From Candidatus Woesearchaeota archaeon (lineage in GTDB: Archaea; Nanobdellota; Nanobdellia; Pacearchaeales; GW2011-AR1): DNA of 64,000 bases. Under the pieces are notes generated by a model. That model was not told where the DNA came from, searched no databases, and was given only the letters and a program-made list of their open reading frames with translations. Below, in pieces: positions 1 to 9,516 of this stretch; position 1 is the first letter of the stretch; each line of letters opens with the position of its first letter. Where the stretch lies: contig CAZOCP010000001.1 of NCBI GenBank assembly GCA_964578345.1, positions 2,028 to 66,027 of the forward strand. Direction: 5' to 3'. Made by a program: the position numbers and the translations under genes.

Positions 1-16
1 AAAGGGATGTATTGTT

Positions 17-472
17 ATGTTCTATAGTTCTAAGAAGGCTGTTGCAGTTATTCCAGACATTTATGGCAATACCGATGAAGAAATAGCCTCTGCTGTTTCT
101 GATTTTGCTTCACAGCTTATAGGGGTGATTGAATCTGAATTTGAAGGTCTAAAGATAGATAATTTTAAAGTTGCTAAGTTTAGTTCAATGCACGTAGCCA
201 TTTTAGACTCTGTTATTGCAGAATCTTTTCTTATTGAAAATAAACATTGTTATTCTAATGGACGCTTGGCTATTGATTCTTCTCATGGAAGAAATGAACT
301 TGAAGCAGAATCTTGTGATACTGCTCTTGAAGATATAGAAATTTTAGTCAAGTATGAAAATCTTACAAGAGAAAACCAAAAATTAAGAGAGAGGATTAAA
401 GAAGTAGAATCCGAGCTTGAAAATATTCGCAAAAAAGAAGTCGGGGAGGGTATATCAAAAGAGCAAAAATGA
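17..472 (+). CDS. hypothetical protein, C-terminal coiled coil (within integrase-associated island)
   Basis: ORF of 151 aa; heptad-like E/K-rich C-terminus; no recognisable catalytic motifs. Confidence 0.3.
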   Translation: MFYSSKKAVAVIPDIYGNTDEEIASAVSDFASQLIGVIESEFEGLKIDNFKVAKFSSMHVAILDSVIAESFLIENKHCYSNGRLAIDSSHGRNELEAESCDTALEDIEILVKYENLTRENQKLRERIKEVESELENIRKKEVGEGISKEQK

Positions 473-549
473 TACAAAAACTTGACAAACTTGACAAAAG
501 ATTACTGATTCCCTTACATACTCAGAAGAACATCAAGGAGTGCAGATAA

Positions 550-1047
550 ATGACGAGTGAAGCCCAAATATCAGCTAATAGAGAGAATGCACAGCTTAGC
601 ACAGGAGCAAATGATACTTCTAAAACGAGATTTAATGCTGTGAGGCATGGACTTTGTGCGAAAGCATTTCTTACAGAAAAACAAAAAGCCGAATTTAGTG
701 AGATATTTGAAGAGCTGATAGGAGAATTAGAACCCAAAGGAGTAATTGAATTAAGACTTGTTGAAAATATTGCTTTGGCTCTTTGGGAGAGGCAGAAAGT
801 TATTGTGAAAGAGATTGTATACGAGCATAATGGGGATTTGGATGGTCAAATAACAAAGATAAAAAATTCTCCATTTAACGATTTAAACTTTGGAATAACA
901 GAAAAAGATAACAGGAAAAAGAACGAGTTAGAGGATACTAAAATAAATCTTGTATTGCCTAATGAATTGCTTATGCGTTATAGGAATGAAGCAGATAATC
1001 GTTTTTACAGGGTTTTAAGAGTTTGGAAAGAATTTATTCGTAAGTAA
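550..1047 (+). CDS. hypothetical protein
   Basis: 165-aa ORF, no recognisable motifs; lies in integrase-associated block. Confidence 0.3.
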   Translation: MTSEAQISANRENAQLSTGANDTSKTRFNAVRHGLCAKAFLTEKQKAEFSEIFEELIGELEPKGVIELRLVENIALALWERQKVIVKEIVYEHNGDLDGQITKIKNSPFNDLNFGITEKDNRKKNELEDTKINLVLPNELLMRYRNEADNRFYRVLRVWKEFIRK

Positions 1048-1072
1048 TTGGCTTCGTTTCGGGAAACGGAAA

Positions 1073-1420
1073 TTATTTATTTTCTTTTCTTAATATGCTT
1101 GATGTAGCAGAAAGTATTTTTTCAATATTTCTCATATTCTTTCCGAAATCAAATGCTCCACCAAATAATAAACCTGTTTTTGGTGAAGATGTAATTTTAA
1201 CTTTAGTTTTATTTTTTGAAATTTCAGATAATTGAATTGGAATATTCTCTCCCCACGACATCAAACTTATCCCTGCTTTGACTACAATTCTTCCTTGTAA
1301 TTTATCTGCACTATCTATCTTCATTCCTTCAATTGTAGAAATTGCCTTTACCATTGCAGTAAAAACTTTATCTTTACTAAATGGAAATTCACTTTCACCT
1401 TGATGGTCTAAAAATGCCAT
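1073..1420 (-). CDS. hypothetical protein
   Basis: 115-aa ORF, no recognisable motifs. Confidence 0.3.
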   Translation of the reverse strand: MAFLDHQGESEFPFSKDKVFTAMVKAISTIEGMKIDSADKLQGRIVVKAGISLMSWGENIPIQLSEISKNKTKVKITSSPKTGLLFGGAFDFGKNMRNIEKILSATSSILRKENK

Positions 1421-1481
1421 TTTAATCTTTCTCCTTTTTGAAGTATAAATGTTAAGTTTTCTTTCATTTTAATTTAACTGA

Positions 1482-1985
1482 TTAATACCCTACAGCTTGA
1501 ACACCATATTCAGCTTGTTCTCTTGTAAATCCTTCATATACTAATTGTTCAATTAACCCTTCTCGTGAAAATGGCATAGAATCTAAGTAAGATTGAGCTT
1601 TTAATGCCGCCTGTTCATTCCAGTCAGCCCCACAATTATCTGCACCATATTTAGCCTCTTCGTGAGAATATCCCTCATACTCTAATTGTTTTATCAATCC
1701 ACTATAAGAAAATGCCATTACATCCAAATATGATAAAGCTTTTTTTAATGCGTTCTTTTCACCAATTGTTGCTGTATCTGTTTCTGTATTTTGCTGATTT
1801 ACATTATCGGTAGGTTGAATATTTACATTTTGTGTTGCTTGATTAGGATTTGGTTGATTTGTATTTTGGGAATTGTTATCTGTAGAGTTATTTGAGAAAA
1901 TTCCTATAATAATAAGAAAAACAAAAATGCCAATAACTACGCTCCAAACTGGATGCCTCTTAAACCAGTTTTTCTGCTTTTCCAT
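1482..1985 (-). CDS. membrane-anchored protein with two Ltp-family (phage host-surface lipoprotein-like) repeats
   Basis: N-terminal TM helix, then a Q/N/T-rich linker. Two repeats, ALKKALSYLDVMAFSYSGLIKQLEYEGYSHEEAKYGADNCGADW and ALKAQSYLDSMPFSREGLIEQLVYEGFTREQAEYGVQAVG, match the Ltp repeat pattern. Confidence 0.5.
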   Translation of the reverse strand: MEKQKNWFKRHPVWSVVIGIFVFLIIIGIFSNNSTDNNSQNTNQPNPNQATQNVNIQPTDNVNQQNTETDTATIGEKNALKKALSYLDVMAFSYSGLIKQLEYEGYSHEEAKYGADNCGADWNEQAALKAQSYLDSMPFSREGLIEQLVYEGFTREQAEYGVQAVGY

Positions 1986-2065
1986 ACTTTATGTATGTAA
2001 TTTATCCTTTTAAATATTTGGTAACTCATAAGGTAACCTTGAAATAAAAGACTTGGTAACTTGTT

Positions 2066-2338
2066 TTGGGTATGTCAAATGCTACCCGTATTAGTTTTGT
2101 TGCAAGAAGTAAAAGAAGGAAGGAACTCTTAGAAATTTTGAATAAATCCAAAGAAATTAGCCAGCCAGAAATAATGAAGTTATCAAAACAATACAAATCT
2201 CACAATTCACGAACTCTTAAAGAATTATCTGATAAGGGACTAATAGTTTGTGTTAATCCTGAAGACAGGTCTTTCAAATTCTACAAAATAACAAAGAAAG
2301 GAAAAGAAATATTGAAAGAAGCTATAAGAATTAGTTAA
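2066..2338 (+). CDS. small winged-helix DNA-binding protein
   Basis: 90 aa, basic; helix-turn-helix-like segment; adjacent and convergent to the integrase. Confidence 0.35.
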   Translation: MGMSNATRISFVARSKRRKELLEILNKSKEISQPEIMKLSKQYKSHNSRTLKELSDKGLIVCVNPEDRSFKFYKITKKGKEILKEAIRIS

Positions 2339-3102
2339 GTCTGCTTTGATAACTTTATCTTTTCAATCTCTAATTCTAACTTTTTAATTTCCAGTAGTTT
2401 ATCTGCTTCTGTTTGCGAGCTATAGCTTTGTGGTAAGACATAAGGATTCATTTGATGATTAAAGGCTTGATTTATTGCTCTCTGTCTCTGGACGTCGCTT
2501 ATTCTTGCGTATATCTGGGTGGTTGTGACTTGATTGTGCCCTAAGAGGTCTGAGATTGTATAAATATCAACACCCTTATCACTTAAATAAGTAGCATAGC
2601 TGTGGCGTAGAGTGTGAAAATAATATTTGTGTCTGGTAATTTTCTTAATTGTTTCTTTTCCGTTTACTTTTGTTTTAAACTCTAATTCCATTGCAGGAAT
2701 TAAAAGCCCAGTTTTACTCAGTGCTTCACGATATTGTTCTCCTAAACTCTTTTTACGAATATGTGCGTCAGGGGATTTATCTGATGGGAATAACCACTTA
2801 CCACCATCTATTATTTCAATCCATTTCTTTATTGGGCTTATCATCTGTGGTGGAATAGGAACATATCTATCTTTGCCATAACCGCTTAAACTTCTTTTGC
2901 TATTCTTTCCATCAGTAACTTTCAATCTTTGTTTTTCAAGGTCAACATCTTCTATTTTTAGATTACAGACTTCAGAAATTCTCAAGCCACAGAAAAAAGC
3001 GAGAGCCGAAGCAATTGCAACTTTAGGTCTGTCTACGGCATCAAAAATTTTAATCAACTGCTCAACATTCAAAACGCTTGGTAGTTTATTATTGTTGCTC
3101 AT
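2335..3102 (-). CDS. tyrosine recombinase/integrase, catalytic domain
   Basis: C-terminal HTLRHSYATYLSDKGVDIYTISDLLGH...TQIYARI matches the R-H-R-Y catalytic signature of XerC/D-type integrases; it lacks an N-terminal core-binding domain. Confidence 0.8.
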   Translation of the reverse strand: MSNNNKLPSVLNVEQLIKIFDAVDRPKVAIASALAFFCGLRISEVCNLKIEDVDLEKQRLKVTDGKNSKRSLSGYGKDRYVPIPPQMISPIKKWIEIIDGGKWLFPSDKSPDAHIRKKSLGEQYREALSKTGLLIPAMELEFKTKVNGKETIKKITRHKYYFHTLRHSYATYLSDKGVDIYTISDLLGHNQVTTTQIYARISDVQRQRAINQAFNHQMNPYVLPQSYSSQTEADKLLEIKKLELEIEKIKLSKQT

Positions 3103-3566
3103 TATAAACCTCTCATCATTGTTCTTATTTCTTCCATCATGAGAAGTCCGGTATTGCTATTTTTGACTCTTCTTCTATTAGCAGAGATTTGCATGGCTTT
3201 CTTGACGCTTATTTTGCCTTTGGAGAGCTTATCTTTAACATCTTCAGGAATACGAGTGGCGAGAAACCATCTGTATGTGGTTGAAGGATTAAGGTTTTCC
3301 TTTAATAGATATTCATATAGCACCTTTTCATTGAATGTAAGGTCTCTGTAGCCTTTCCAGCCTCTTCTTCCGAGAGGCACACCTTTTTTCTTATGTGCAA
3401 GATACGTTCTAATTTTGCTCAACATAGAAATGAGCTTATCGCCTTCAACTTCTGGAAGAATAGTTTTTATCCCTTCTTTTATCTCATTAACTTTATCAAA
3501 AATGTTTCTCTTCTTTCCGTTCTCTCGGATTCTATAGTTTCCTATCCTATCATAACTCATTTTCAT
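3102..3566 (-). CDS. possible integrase N-terminal (SAM-like/core-binding) domain protein, translationally coupled to the catalytic-domain gene
   Basis: Stop and start overlap the integrase gene (TAATG). Segment LYEYLLKENLNPSTTYRWFLATR resembles the integrase N-terminal SAM-like helix. Confidence 0.35.
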   Translation of the reverse strand: MKMSYDRIGNYRIRENGKKRNIFDKVNEIKEGIKTILPEVEGDKLISMLSKIRTYLAHKKKGVPLGRRGWKGYRDLTFNEKVLYEYLLKENLNPSTTYRWFLATRIPEDVKDKLSKGKISVKKAMQISANRRRVKNSNTGLLMMEEIRTMMRGL

Positions 3567-3943
3567 ACATCCTTTTATTTATTTTTCTTTATATTATTTG
3601 TAATGCAGTCGTAATGCAATTCAAGAAAGAGAGCTAAAATTCATGAACTTACGTAACTTTTGCCAGTAATTGTGCCTGCAATTATACCGACGACGAGTGC
3701 AATTATTAATTCTAACAACATTGTATTCCCGGACTAATTCTCGAGTGATTTTGTGGTTTTCGGTGGTTTCTCAAGGGCTTTTAGAGACTCGTGCATTTCT
3801 TGTAGCCTATTAAGTTTAATAGAATTATTAACTTTATGCTAAAAAGATGCAACCTGAGAAGGTTGTGAGGATTGCGAGAGCAAGTGAGAGGGTTTTAAGA
3901 AAATTACAGGCATTTGAAAAAATTGAGGAAGGAGATTAAATAA

Positions 3944-4261
3944 TCATTTATTTTTTATTCTTAGAGCCAAAATACTTTTTTTGCCTGCAAAATCATCAAT
4001 AATTCCAAGAACAGATATGTTTTTTCCTTTAAGAGAAAGAAGGCATTCACATTCAAATGAGATATTATTATCTAATAATATTACTTTGCTTTTTTCATAC
4101 GCTTTTTCATTAATAACTTTGCCTGAAAAGATAATTTTTTCATTATCTTTCAATTTGTTTATCTCTGAATAGGCTGTAATTTCTTTTGGATTTAAGAATT
4201 GTAATAATATCAATAAACAAAACAATCCCAGGATTCCTATAGATAAAGATAATCTGCGCAT
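3944..4261 (-). CDS. small secreted/membrane-anchored hypothetical protein
   Basis: N-terminal signal/TM segment LSIGILGLFCLLILL; 105 aa. Confidence 0.3.
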   Translation of the reverse strand: MRRLSLSIGILGLFCLLILLQFLNPKEITAYSEINKLKDNEKIIFSGKVINEKAYEKSKVILLDNNISFECECLLSLKGKNISVLGIIDDFAGKKSILALRIKNK

Positions 4262-4310
4262 CTTTTTATAAGTTAGAAAGGTTTAAATTAATCTTTCTAT
4301 TGTAGAGAAT

Positions 4311-5420
4311 ATGAATAAGAAACAGAGTAATAAGAGTAATGAAGAAGGCATAGAAGAAAGATTGCAATTGATAAAAAGTGTAGCTGATGGAGGCGAGATA
4401 ATAGGTGAAGATGAGTTAAGAGGAATTATTGCTTCTGGAAAAGAGATAGTTGCTTATGATGGTTTTGAACCTTCCGGATTAGCACATATTCCATTTGGAT
4501 TGCTTAGGGCAGAAAATTTAAAAGTCATGTTGAGAGCAGGCGTTAAGTTTAAACTGTTACTTGCCGATTACTTTGCATTTATTAATAACAAATTAGGTGG
4601 AGATTTGGAAAGAATAAAAAAAGCTGGAGAGTATTTTGTTGAAGTATGGAAAGCATGCGGTGTTGATACGAGTAAAGTTGAAATTGTTTGGTCTTCAGAT
4701 AGAATGAATAGGTTGGCTTATTGGGATAGGGTATTGAGAATAGCGAAGGAAACAACTTTGAATAGAATTATGAGGGCTACAACAATTATGGGCAGAAAAG
4801 AGGGTGAGCTACACTCTACTGCCCAATTGTTTTATCCAACTATGCAAGTTTCAGATATTTTTGATTTGAATGTTGACATTTGCCAGCTTGGGTTGGATCA
4901 GAGAAGAGCAAATATTCTTGGAAGAGAAATGGCTGAAAAACTAAAATGGAAAAGACCGGTTGTTGTTTCACATCATATGATTTTAGGGCTGCAGGGAATA
5001 CAATCTGGACAAGACAAAGAAGAAATAATAATCGCAAGTAAAATGAGTAAGAGCAAGCCGGAAAGTGCTATTTTTATGCATGACGATTTTGAAGAGATAA
5101 AAAAGAAGATTGAGAAGGCATATTGTCCTGAAAAGATATTAGAGGGAAATCCTCTATTTGATTATCTGAGATATTTAATTTTTAAAAGATATTCTAAAGT
5201 AAAAATAGAGAGACCTAAAAAATTTGGAGGAAATTTGGAATTAGATTATTCAGAGCTGAAGGAGGTTTATGAAAGGGGAGATTTACATCCTTCTGATTTG
5301 AAGAAGGCAGTTATATTTTATTTAAATGAAATGATAGCTCCTGTTAGAGAATACTTTGAAAAAAATAAGAGAGCTAAGGAATTGTACGAAGAAGTTAAAA
5401 AATATGCTTTAACTAGGTAG
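4311..5420 (+). CDS. tyrS: tyrosyl-tRNA synthetase (archaeal type)
   Basis: GFEPSG...H motif, KMSKS motif, and C-terminal KKAYCP..EGNP...RP.KFGG..HP.DLK block typical of archaeal TyrRS. Confidence 0.85.
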   Translation: MNKKQSNKSNEEGIEERLQLIKSVADGGEIIGEDELRGIIASGKEIVAYDGFEPSGLAHIPFGLLRAENLKVMLRAGVKFKLLLADYFAFINNKLGGDLERIKKAGEYFVEVWKACGVDTSKVEIVWSSDRMNRLAYWDRVLRIAKETTLNRIMRATTIMGRKEGELHSTAQLFYPTMQVSDIFDLNVDICQLGLDQRRANILGREMAEKLKWKRPVVVSHHMILGLQGIQSGQDKEEIIIASKMSKSKPESAIFMHDDFEEIKKKIEKAYCPEKILEGNPLFDYLRYLIFKRYSKVKIERPKKFGGNLELDYSELKEVYERGDLHPSDLKKAVIFYLNEMIAPVREYFEKNKRAKELYEEVKKYALTR

Positions 5421-6306: not shown

Positions 6307-6497
6307 GCATTCCTGAAACCTTTCAGGTATAAAAAATCTTCCCAGAAGGTCCTTCTTTTTTCTGTAATACTTACTCTCGCTTTCATCACGTCTTTTGCCA
6401 TAGGCGGAATAAGTTTTTCTTTTCGCACTATTTTTAGCAATTCGTAAAAGTCTCCAGGTCCAAATACTTCATAATGGACACCTAATATTTCATGCAT
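6303..6497 (-). CDS. small hypothetical protein overlapping the start of the methyltransferase gene
   Basis: 64-aa ORF, 4-nt overlap (coupled). Confidence 0.25.
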   Translation of the reverse strand: MHEILGVHYEVFGPGDFYELLKIVRKEKLIPPMAKDVMKARVSITEKRRTFWEDFLYLKGFRNA

Positions 6498-6563
6498 GCT
6501 TTATCTTTCTTTTTTTATTATTTAAATGTTTTTGCTCTGGTGTATCTGGACGGAGTGGTAAAA

Positions 6564-7472
6564 TCATGATGTATGAAATTCAACAATATCTTTATCTTTT
6601 AAAATATGGCCAAGGCCCACTTTTTGATTTGGAAATTTGCTCGAGGGGCCAGTAACGCGAGTTGCTTTTATTCTTTGAGAAAAACCCTTAAGTATACTTT
6701 CTGCAGCATCTTTGACTGTGGAGTTCTGAGACAAAACCAAGGGGATTTGAGAAATAGATTTGCCCGGCTCTTTCATGTAGACGCGGACGACGCCCATGTT
6801 TTGAAATATTTTTTCTTTTAATTGTTCAATTCCCCTGTTTGAAAAACAAGATATTAGTATTGCAGGAAGTTTTTTACTTCTTATTTTTTCCTGGAGTTTG
6901 CGAATTTCCTCTTCTGATAATAGATCTATTTTATTTACAATTATTATTCTCTTTCCTGTTGTTTTTACTAAATATGGAGAGATTTTTTCTATTTCTTCTA
7001 ACTTAGTAATCACTAGGATAATCAAGTCTGCAGTGTTTGCTACCCCCATATCTAACTTTTCTGATCCTATACTTGGAAGATCAACTATTTGCGCCCTTAC
7101 ACCACGATACTCAAGCGTGCCAACTTCTGGAGTTTGTGTAGTAAAAGGATGCTCAGATATGAGCGGGCAAGCGTTTGTAATTTTTGATAGAAGCGAAGAT
7201 TTGCCTGATTTTGTGAATCCGATGAGAACACATTGAAATCCTTCTTTACGAATAGTCTTACGTGTTGTTTTTCCTATTTTTTTGCTTTTTTCTTTTTTTT
7301 CTTTAAGCTTTTTAAGGCGGGTTTTAAGTTCAGCAAGTAGATTCTCACTAGATTTATGTTTAGGGGCAGATCTAATCATCCCTTCCAGTGCAGTAATTTT
7401 TTCTTCTATTGTTGCTGCCCGCAAATATATCTTTTCTGCATTGATAAATTCATAAGATGCATTAACTGGCAT
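6564..7472 (-). CDS. Obg-family GTPase of DRG type with C-terminal TGS domain
   Basis: G1 GFTKSGKSS, G3 DLPS, G4 NKID; N-terminal helical region and C-terminal TGS-like beta-grasp. Confidence 0.7.
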   Translation of the reverse strand: MPVNASYEFINAEKIYLRAATIEEKITALEGMIRSAPKHKSSENLLAELKTRLKKLKEKKEKSKKIGKTTRKTIRKEGFQCVLIGFTKSGKSSLLSKITNACPLISEHPFTTQTPEVGTLEYRGVRAQIVDLPSIGSEKLDMGVANTADLIILVITKLEEIEKISPYLVKTTGKRIIIVNKIDLLSEEEIRKLQEKIRSKKLPAILISCFSNRGIEQLKEKIFQNMGVVRVYMKEPGKSISQIPLVLSQNSTVKDAAESILKGFSQRIKATRVTGPSSKFPNQKVGLGHILKDKDIVEFHTS

Positions 7473-7522: not shown

Positions 7523-8719
7523 ATGAGATTTCTTCGTAAAAAGTTGAAGAACGGCATAACGGTACTTATGGAACAGCGGGAGCTACCTGTAATTGCTGCC
7601 AGCATTACTAACCTTCACGGTGCTGGTTTAGAAGATGCTAAAATCAAAGGTATTTCGCATATGGTTGAGCACATGCTCTTTACTGGAACTAAGACAAGAA
7701 CCCATGAAGACATTTCTCGTGAGATCGAGAAGAAAGGAGGAATTTTGAATGCTTTTACTGCGAGCGAAGTTACTTCGTATTGGTTTAAGTTACCGAGTGA
7801 ACACTTGTTTAAAGGTTTTGATATCCTCTGTGATATGCTCAAGAATGCTATTTTTAATTTAGAAAAGTTCGAGAAGGAAAAAAAAGTTATTCTAGAAGAA
7901 ATCAAGATGTATCATGATACGCCTGAGCGTTATATTTATGATATTATCGCGCAGAACCTCTACTCGCCTCCTTTTGGTTTGCCTGTTATAGGCGATGCAA
8001 ATAGTGTATCTAGCTTGTCGCGAGATTTCGTTATTGAATACTTTAAAAAACATTATTCACCTAGTACATACTTGGCGGTTTTAGTCGGCAAGGCTGACTT
8101 TGATACAGTGTGTGATTATTTAGAGCAGCAATTTCCTTCCGGACAACGAACCATTCCCCAGATTAAAGTTTTGCCTATTATTTGCCATACAGTCGAAGAA
8201 CGAGCAGGAATTGATCAAGCACACTATATTTTTGGAGTACATGCTCCATTGTATGGAACACATGAATACTCTGTGCTTGAAGTTCTGGATGCCTATCTTG
8301 CAAACGGCATGAGTTCGCGGCTTTTTCTTAAGATTCGGGAGGAAAAAGGACTTGCATATACTGTACGAGGCTCGCTTAATGCAGAAAGAAGCTATTCTTA
8401 CTATACTATTTATACTGGAACAAATAAAGCGGCGATTTCCGAAATACAAAAAATAATTCTCGATGAATTTGTAGCCATTGAAAAGATGAATGCGAAAGAT
8501 CTGGCAGAGGCAAAGCAACTCTTAATTGGCCAGCGTAAAATTAGCAGTGAAGAAAGCACAAAGGTAATGACTGAGTTGCTCTTTGCAGAGGTTGTGGGAA
8601 AGGCAGAGGATTATTATGAGCACGATAAGAGAATACAATCAGTAAATTTACAACAAGTAAAGACTTTAGCTGGGGAATTGATCAAGAAATACAGCACAGC
8701 GATAATTGTACCAAAGTGA
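7523..8719 (+). CDS. M16-family zinc peptidase (pitrilysin/insulinase-like)
   Basis: Inverted zinc motif HMVEHM (HxxEH) near the N-terminus; length and fold pattern of the M16B subfamily. Confidence 0.75.
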   Translation: MRFLRKKLKNGITVLMEQRELPVIAASITNLHGAGLEDAKIKGISHMVEHMLFTGTKTRTHEDISREIEKKGGILNAFTASEVTSYWFKLPSEHLFKGFDILCDMLKNAIFNLEKFEKEKKVILEEIKMYHDTPERYIYDIIAQNLYSPPFGLPVIGDANSVSSLSRDFVIEYFKKHYSPSTYLAVLVGKADFDTVCDYLEQQFPSGQRTIPQIKVLPIICHTVEERAGIDQAHYIFGVHAPLYGTHEYSVLEVLDAYLANGMSSRLFLKIREEKGLAYTVRGSLNAERSYSYYTIYTGTNKAAISEIQKIILDEFVAIEKMNAKDLAEAKQLLIGQRKISSEESTKVMTELLFAEVVGKAEDYYEHDKRIQSVNLQQVKTLAGELIKKYSTAIIVPK

Positions 8720-8748
8720 GATTAATTATTTATTTTATTCTCAAAAAT

Positions 8749-9516
8749 TTAAACTTTAAAAATAGGTGTAGCGTAGTCTTTCAATGAAAGAGAGATTTCA
8801 GCTGGAAAGTTTTTTCTCTCTCTTAGAAGAGCATTGAAAGTTGAGAAGGCTTTTTTTGGAGTATTATTTATTTCACTAAGGTGAGAGAGAACAACATGTC
8901 TTAATTTTTGGTTTGCGTGCTCTAAAATTCCAAGAGCCGCCTGCTTGTTTGAAAGATGTCCTTCATCACTTTTTATCCACGATTTTAGGTGTTCTGGGTA
9001 AGGACCGTTTTCAAGCATTTTAGTGTCGTGATTTGATTCTAGGAAGATAAAATGGGAGCTCGAAATATGTGCATTTGCTTCCTTGCATAAGTAACCTAGG
9101 TCAGTTATTATAGAGACTTTTTTGTTTGTAGATATCATGTAAGAAACAGGGTCTGCCGCTGAATGGGATTTTGGGAATGCCTTAATTTCCAAATTGTTTA
9201 TTTTTACAGTTTCATTATTTTTTATTGGTTGAATAAGAGAATCTTCTTTACACAAAAAAGAGTTTTTTATTGTTTTTTTAGTTGCATAAATGGGTATGTT
9301 GAATTGACGAGCGAAAACGTCTGTGCCACGAACATGGTCTATATGTTCATGAGTAATAAATATAGCTTTAATGTTTGAAGGGACTCTTTTTATGGAAGCT
9401 AATCTTTCAATGATCTTCTTAGCACTAATGCCTACATCTACTATTATAGCTGATTTTTTGTGCTCTATATAAAAGCAATTTCCTGAAGATCCTGATGCAA
9501 GTGCAGAGACTTTCAT
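8749..9516 (-). CDS. metallo-beta-lactamase-fold hydrolase
   Basis: THEHIDH (HxHxDH) motif with downstream His/Asp ligands. Confidence 0.7.
   Translation of the reverse strand: MKVSALASGSSGNCFYIEHKKSAIIVDVGISAKKIIERLASIKRVPSNIKAIFITHEHIDHVRGTDVFARQFNIPIYATKKTIKNSFLCKEDSLIQPIKNNETVKINNLEIKAFPKSHSAADPVSYMISTNKKVSIITDLGYLCKEANAHISSSHFIFLESNHDTKMLENGPYPEHLKSWIKSDEGHLSNKQAALGILEHANQKLRHVVLSHLSEINNTPKKAFSTFNALLRERKNFPAEISLSLKDYATPIFKV

Follow-up and report, generated by a model that had tools for sequence, protein, structure and literature searches.

A two-gene tyrosine recombinase module on a putative plasmid-like element integrated at the 5' end of TctA in a DPANN archaeon

The integrase of the haloarchaeal virus SNJ2 needs two small upstream proteins, encoded by co-transcribed and overlapping genes and one of them of the winged helix-turn-helix (wHTH) type, for integration (PMC5861418). 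In this operon type of the pleolipoviruses (Int, Orf2 and Orf3) the accessory proteins comprise a coiled-coil protein and a MarR-like wHTH protein, they occur only in some family members, and the target is a tRNA-Met with a 14-bp core. The archaeal recombinase XerA (Pyrococcus abyssi, 4a8e) carries an N-terminal core-binding domain of ~100 amino acids (aa) and acts at chromosomal dif, while the SSV-type "suicidal" integrases of archaeal elements have attP inside int, and the halves of the gene come to lie at opposite ends of the provirus. FimB and FimE are ~200-aa tyrosine recombinases that consist essentially of the catalytic domain; their helpers IHF and Lrp are host-encoded, unlinked and of general architectural function, and the reaction is inversion. 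The mobile elements and integration machinery of DPANN archaea are barely described, and DPANN is unmentioned in a 2021 review of archaeal tyrosine recombinases. Here we analyze a stretch of 64,000 nucleotides (nt) from a Candidatus Woesearchaeota archaeon (contig CAZOCP010000001.1, hereafter the window). Positions 1-3667 probably belong to an integrated plasmid-like element of 5,633 bp in this DPANN archaeon (Woesearchaeota/Pacearchaeota group) and make up its right-hand 3.66 kb. The element carries a 154-aa protein gene (3102-3566, minus strand; the partner) followed by the gene of a 255-aa tyrosine recombinase (2335-3102, minus strand; the integrase) and sits at the 5' end of a TctA-family membrane protein gene. 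In the literature searched, we found neither the two-gene module nor DPANN integrases described, and no mention of TctA as a target of integration. Judged from the sequence, the system remains a tyrosine-recombinase integrative element, and its two-gene module directed at the TctA 5' end appears to be new.

The locus resembles the SNJ2-type operon, one of whose small proteins has a helix-turn-helix (HTH), in that an archaeal tyrosine integrase gene is overlapped by a small gene upstream, a likeness of gene order. Going by the descriptions, it is set apart by a single, universal partner with a probable ParB-like HTH; moreover, the target here is the 5' end of a protein gene, and the integrase is catalytic-only. 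XerA is the nearest catalytic domain by sequence and has the same R-K-H-R-H-Y active site, but the window integrase starts at about XerA residue 95, lies on a mobile element, and adds a beta-hairpin insert and a C-terminal coiled-coil-like helix. As in the SSV-type elements, the integrase gene seems to be in two parts; here, however, both genes are intact and adjacent, the attachment (att) core at 3661-3667 lies outside both recombination open reading frames (ORFs), 95 nt upstream of the partner gene, and it is the host TctA that gets split. Compared with FimB and FimE, the presumed helper is a dedicated one whose gene shares an operon with that of the integrase, and the element integrates instead of inverting.

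An initial annotation of the window, made from the sequence alone, had proposed an integrase-bearing island that runs past the left edge. The ENA contig that carries the 154-aa protein (locus L001) extends 5.8 kb past this edge and bears this out: the window starts inside the element. L001 is reversed relative to the window, window position p corresponding to L001 position 13567 - p. When the 480 nt that precede the partner gene were aligned for nine loci, homology between elements was seen to begin sharply at a conserved ACAGGC, which in every case follows a short ORF similar to the TctA N-terminus. In the window contig this stub reads MLLELIIALVVGIIAGTITG and is followed by ACTGGCA (L001 9900-9906, window 3661-3667, minus strand), which marks the right-hand junction between element and host. 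The full stub ORF, MLLELIIALVVGIIAGTITG-KSYVSS*, occupies 3641-3721 on the minus strand; its first 20 codons (3662-3721) are the host TctA 5' end and its tail is element DNA. The intact TctA, 5.6 kb away, reads VAILTLIAALLLGVTFGTFTG-IIPGIH and contains the identical ACTGGCA at codons 20-21 (L001 15533-15539). The core falls within TctA codons 18-21, and its general form is ACWGGC(A). Since the same heptamer stands at both junctions, the element measures 5,633 bp, which places its left junction 1.97 kb to the left of the window. The initial annotation had described the left end and the att sites as not visible, which holds for the left core but not for the right junction (3661-3721), and it had suggested extending leftward in search of att repeats or a tRNA. 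This extension does reveal the second core inside TctA. A tRNA or noncoding RNA target was rejected: ARAGORN detected no tRNA in 35 loci, and Rfam reported only two distant tRNAs in the window. A search for direct repeats of at least 14 nt across the extended locus gave none that was convincing; it missed the true core because this is only 7 nt long in the present host, and the core was revealed by comparative alignment.

The same arrangement recurs in relatives. A perfect 30-nt direct repeat (CTTGGTGTGGCTTCCGGGGTTTTTACAGGC) is found at both junctions of a 4,454-bp element in L013, and L005 has an 8,146-bp element between the equivalent points. Of 31 related DPANN loci, 27 have a TctA stub ~100-330 nt (mostly 100-170 nt) ahead of the partner gene, as do four additional contigs; the loci without one are mostly those with too little upstream sequence. 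The stubs comprise 19-23 codons, in most cases 20; their last two residues are TG, except for SG in a single locus, and the core at their end is usually ACAGGC or a close variant, with ACNGGN in all but one. Remote family members have no TctA stub and are located elsewhere, for example after the ribosomal protein L35Ae gene. The arm joined to the intact TctA is nearly identical in L001 and L005 while the stubs differ, which fits an intact TctA whose first 20 codons are element-derived and a stub that represents the host's original 5' end. The junction predicted for the excised form (attP) is TTCGGGACTTTCACTGGCAAAAGTTACGTAAG, and that predicted for attB is GCAGGCACAATTACTGGCATAATTCCCGGC.

Between L001 and L005 the recombination genes are highly conserved (partner 90% identity, integrase 85%) relative to the host genes TyrRS (31%) and TctA (55%). 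The cargo between the same junctions varies, giving elements of 4.5-8.1 kb, and the Ltp and 115-aa genes are unique to the window element. Unoccupied sites are also present in relatives: in L045 TyrRS and TctA are divergent neighbours ~100 nt apart, and L043 and L044 have native TctA 5' ends without a module upstream. By the target sequence repeated at its two ends, its variable cargo and the empty sites of relatives, the locus is recognized as a site-specifically integrated mobile element. One could suppose instead that it is not mobile and represents either an Xer-like resolution system conserved on the chromosome or a remnant that has been domesticated beside TyrRS and TctA. The TyrRS/TctA synteny does recur in several genomes, XerA is the nearest solved structure, and the excised form was not found in JGI metagenomes or IMG/VR. 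We nevertheless give this explanation almost no weight, since it is opposed by the duplicated TctA 5' ends with their direct repeats (30 nt in L013), by the changing cargo between constant junctions, by a module far better conserved than the flanking host genes, by the empty sites, and by a contig with two module copies, one of them beside a terminase gene. The 4.8-kb contig L038 was considered as a free circular form and rejected, as it has no terminal overlap and contains the host TctA stub and is therefore integrated. In L043 (metagenome contig Hain-H43) we also observed the last ~41 codons of TctA in two additional copies (6465-6587 and 8713-8835; 53-56% identical to the query C-terminus), 1.5 and 3.8 kb downstream of the otherwise unoccupied TctA (3766-4962); these look like other elements in tandem at the 3' end of the gene.

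The partner and the integrase are strictly linked. The partner represents a new protein family, for which Pfam has no model. The partner search returned 236 proteins, and the 120 listed are 113-167 aa long and all without a Pfam domain; few of them are named, mostly as Woesearchaeota or Aenigmatarchaeota. A partner gene is followed by an integrase homologue on the same strand in 37 out of 37 loci (33 GTDB genomes, the window contig and other fetched contigs), the GTDB genomes being labelled mostly Woesearchaeota, Pacearchaeota and Nanoarchaeota, and in several cases otherwise (uncultured Methanosarcinales, Acidobacteriota, Cloacimonadota). Overall, the partner lies upstream of a PF00589 integrase in all 43 neighbourhoods, directly in ~39 of them and with 1-2 ORFs or a gap of ~230 nt in the remainder. 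Of 31 complete pairs, 29 are spaced by -46 to +22 nt, and eight have the TAATG overlap. In the window the partner stop codon TAA overlaps the integrase ATG in this way (plus strand 3100-3104, CATTA), so that the translational coupling proposed in the initial annotation is confirmed, and the last partner codons contain GAGG (GAGG or GGAG is usual in relatives), placed as the ribosome-binding site of the integrase. Four remote partner relatives (22-34% identity) are also found upstream of integrases, three immediately and one with an intervening gene. No second copy of the module was found in the window.

Two variants of this organization were observed. One 154,411-nt JGI contig (sample 3300072015) has two module copies; the first adjoins a terminase large subunit gene, other virus-like genes and a type I restriction-modification system, and the second adjoins ThyX/SHMT, its partner and integrase genes being separated by two small ORFs. 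Virus-like as well as plasmid-like elements thus make use of the module. In L049 (375-2551) and L050 (1103-1870) a remote 134-aa partner homologue lies directly 3' of the ribosomal protein L35Ae gene, and this variant, at a different insertion site, has three genes: the partner, a 269-aa ORF without known function, and a 319-aa integrase.

The integrase matches PF00589 above the cutoff (E=2.7e-26), its residues 13-202 aligning with profile positions 5-169 of 172. In the alignment with the nearest solved structure, XerA (E=7e-22), query residue 6 pairs with XerA residue 100, which means that ~100 N-terminal residues are missing from the integrase; its start pairs likewise with residue 100 of IntI4. 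In an AlphaFold2 model based on 40 homologues (pLDDT 83), the catalytic fold is predicted with confidence for residues ~10 to 213, and an N-terminal domain is lacking, as had been noted originally. Other features of the model are a long beta-hairpin inserted at residues 136-158, immediately ahead of the HxxR box, and a helix at the C-terminal end (232-254). This helix is amphipathic and follows a disordered linker rich in Q, S and P; the C-terminal region varies among relatives, some of which have a SHOCT domain (PF09851) in its place. The assigned catalytic residues R41, K77, H163, R166, H189 and Y198 are all present, and among 40 relatives all are invariant except K77, which is nearly so (≥90%). 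By these alignments the active site is intact. The integrase thus has the active-site residues of a tyrosine recombinase but no core-binding domain on the same polypeptide. The short form is not peculiar to the window, as 77 of 118 aligned relatives begin within two residues of its first residue. About a quarter of the related integrases listed have their own N-terminal extension of ~65 aa (consensus ..LYE.L.AKG...PNSEK.F..LL.YAL...; examples are P0142, P0154, P0155, P0197 and L003:6482-7510), and in the cases examined these long forms are still accompanied by a separate partner gene. Homology of the extension to the partner, considered because of a common LYE.L motif, was rejected (hhalign probability 1.8%).

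What the partner itself is was addressed by profile and structure searches. According to the initial annotation it contains a SAM-like helix and the integrase is encoded in two pieces. The peptide in question, LYEYLLKENLNPSTTYRWFLATR, is indeed present at residues 83-105, but "SAM-like" is an interpretation: no SAM-like or arm-binding Pfam model matched any of 31 close and 63 distant partner family members, and profile searches of the PDB with the partner did not find recombinases. Foldseek searches against PDB and BFVD gave nothing significant; the best matches were mostly the DNA-binding domains of KorB, Noc, Spo0J, SopB, VirB and ParB, all with E>1. PF17762 (HTH_ParB) was matched by 5 of the 63 distant members (best E=1.6e-4), with no match for the window protein itself. 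The family profile aligned with the Noc HTH at E=0.17 (kTvykWflltrlPedikeklkegkisqkqA against sTianklrLLkLPqevqeaLlqraIterhA), and the C-terminal half of the partner carries the motif LNPSTTYRWF...P.D...L..G.IS...A. Residues ~90-135 are thus probably a ParB-type HTH, as suggested by these profile and model comparisons.

A literally split gene would require the 154-aa protein to be a detached SAM-like core-binding domain that reassembles with the catalytic domain. The integrase does lack ~100 N-terminal residues relative to XerA, and the upstream ORF is of about the right size, all-helical in its C-terminal half, translationally coupled and always present. The two genes are also adjacent and co-oriented, as expected of a two-polypeptide integrase. 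However, the SAM-like fold and fused orthologues that should accompany such a history are missing. An exhaustive HMMER search of 1.84 billion representatives detected no fusion of partner and catalytic domain among 179 family members, the longest of the best 150 being 208 aa. Lack of similarity between the 3102-3566 protein and core-binding domains had been named in the initial annotation as the observation that would speak against a split, and it is what we found; integrases with the ~65-aa extension that still have a partner are a further count against it. We therefore regard a split gene as quite improbable, and the partner and integrase look like a conserved two-gene recombinase module instead of one gene broken in two.

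From these data a mechanism can be proposed. The element would have recombined with the host TctA-family gene at codons 18-21, through the core ACWGGC(A). By supplying a ribosome-binding site (GAGG), a GTG start and codons that imitate the first 20 of TctA, its far arm would keep TctA intact; the host promoter and the first 20 host codons would be left behind as a stub directed into the operon of partner and integrase. The outcome may be a promoter swap, with TctA expressed from the element arm and the operon from the host TctA promoter. Recombination would be carried out by a bicistronic, coupled module in which a 154-aa DNA-binding protein, probably with a ParB-type HTH, precedes a catalytic-only XerA-like recombinase.

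Several observations count against this account. The two junctions of the window's own element have just 7 nt in common, and dyad symmetry around the core is weak and inconsistent (8/12, 6/12 and 5/12 matches) and was not used. The excised attP was not found, its exact pattern being absent from JGI metagenomes, and no member of the partner family was found in IMG/VR viral contigs. Each line of evidence for the ParB-type HTH is non-significant when taken singly. The ~65-aa extension of some relatives could bind DNA on its own. FimB and FimE, though catalytic-only, work with host factors, and the integrase might likewise not need the partner for catalysis. Taking both sides together, we put the probability of the whole explanation, an integrative element with a bicistronic recombinase, at roughly 60%.

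As to the role of the partner within this module, we infer that it supplies in trans the site recognition and DNA clamping of the missing core-binding domain and would thus be a subunit of the recombinase. This is argued by a linkage that is universal across 22-100% identity, by a coupling that implies co-production, unlike typical excisionases, and by the loss of the TctA target, which coincides with strong partner divergence. Conservation of the partner equals or exceeds that of the integrase in the closest clades (90 vs 85%, 76 vs 56% and 61 vs 45%), as expected of a protein reading an invariant target; the order is reversed in several other relatives. The SNJ2 integrase offers a precedent (PMC5861418). 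Alternatively, the partner may be a regulator or a directionality factor, either an Xis-like recombination directionality factor (RDF) or a repressor or activator of the int operon; the integrase would then recognize its site by itself or, like FimB and FimE, together with host chromatin proteins. Small basic proteins of the HTH type encoded beside int are typical of RDFs, and in SNJ2 Orf2 and Orf3 modulate direction and are dispensable for excision (PMC5861418). A pair of exact octamers (TGCATTAC; 3600-3618, minus strand) is also situated where an autoregulator would bind. The two copies are 11 nt apart (L001 9949-9967), just upstream of the A/T-rich promoter-like stretch of the partner gene; they are kept in the close relatives L005, L006 and L038, and in a variant form in L008 and L009, and no further exact copies were found elsewhere in the element. 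By its sequence the pair is a candidate binding site, either an operator or an arm-type site. RDFs, on the other hand, are usually expressed apart from int and evolve fast, whereas the partner is upstream of int, translationally coupled to it and, in the closest clades if not in all relatives, at least as conserved. The linkage in 43 of 43 neighbourhoods includes remote clades with other targets, and partner divergence accompanies the change of target, the TctA stub being absent in the remote clades. A regulatory role therefore seems unlikely to us. Tentatively, the subunit reading can be extended to the family as a whole: it is possible that a natural binary tyrosine recombinase operates across these DPANN elements, in which an unrelated ParB-type HTH protein replaces the core-binding domain and dictates the target, TctA codon 20 here and other sites in remote clades.

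The element also carries a gene for a 167-aa membrane-anchored protein (1482-1985, minus strand) with two Ltp repeats. The Ltp protein of Streptococcus thermophilus phage TP-J34 is similar in having two such repeats behind a membrane anchor and in being encoded near the integrase of an integrated element and transcribed independently; it is lipid-anchored, whereas the window protein has a transmembrane anchor, no lipobox cysteine and a DPANN host. The presence of the two repeats, recognized from the sequence at the start, is supported by the profile search (PF07553, E=4.4e-32, 110 bits against a cutoff of 23.2), and among the PHROG superinfection-exclusion families the protein matches phrog_4980 (E=5e-41). 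Its architecture consists of an N-terminal transmembrane helix (VWSVVIGIFVFLIIIGIF), an N/Q-rich linker and the two repeats, and it has no cysteine before residue 118. The family had been described as known from Gram-positive prophages, where it mediates superinfection exclusion, and the 140 phage records that match Ltp are in fact nearly all from such hosts (Gordonia, Streptococcus, Listeria, Lactobacillus, Staphylococcus and Enterococcus). It had further been called unexpected in an archaeal context. This is right insofar as no archaeal virus is among the 140 records, but at least one Ltp-domain protein is labelled "archaeon", on contigs of up to 405 kb. The nearest named relatives are Clostridia Ltp lipoproteins, with up to ~72% identity over the repeats. 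The gene is probably horizontally acquired accessory cargo, specific to this element and derived from bacteria or their phages; by analogy with the phage proteins, its product would block entry of competing viruses.

The other genes of the element were assigned as follows, and all ORF coordinates given originally were reproduced. Positions 1-472 (plus strand) contain the last 156 codons, the 3' part, of an element gene for a 331-aa protein with a weak wHTH signal and a coiled-coil tail; the protein is kept in related elements (70% identity in L005, 32% in L013). A 165-aa element protein without an assigned function (550-1047, plus strand) is 51% identical in its N-terminal half to a protein of L005. 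The 115-aa cargo protein (1073-1420, minus strand) matches phrog_19323 (E=1.6e-14), a PHROG family without assigned function. The initial annotation had listed several ORFans in this block, a term that does not apply to these three proteins. The gene at 2066-2338 (plus strand) is convergent with the integrase gene and overlaps its end by 4 nt. It is present as described, and its 90-aa product is a probable winged-helix regulator, although its HTH matches remain below threshold (HTH_45, E=4e-5, 23.9 bits against a cutoff of 25.5). To the left of the window the element contains the remainder of the 331-aa gene, a 72-aa ribbon-helix-helix-like gene (NikA-like, weak) and a 290-aa ORF; the host genes beyond it are TctA (PF01970, E=1e-50), a RIO1 kinase and SRP54. 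The 72-aa protein (L001:14090-14308; weak NikA/MobC/CopG matches) recurs in related elements, and a gene of this type often lies directly 3' of the integrase (L010, L011, L016 and L018) and is also found in the terminase-linked module copy. On the right-hand host side, a 105-aa predicted membrane protein without a family match (3944-4261, minus strand) lies between TyrRS and the TctA stub; L045, whose site is unoccupied, has TyrRS and TctA side by side, which identifies this gene as a lineage-specific host insertion.

The combination of TctA stub and partner gene provides a marker of single-base precision with which integrated elements can be delimited in hundreds of DPANN metagenome bins. For these archaea, integration at TctA would represent an unusual strategy of replacing the 5' end of a gene, in which host and element promoters are swapped, and the Ltp cargo documents the traffic of a phage-defence gene, of a kind typical of Gram-positive phages, into an archaeal element. 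If the partner is indeed the DNA-recognition subunit, the module would be a natural counterpart of the binary recombinase engineered from lambda Int (PMC9791396), a compact two-part system that might be directed to other targets by replacing a protein of 150 aa.

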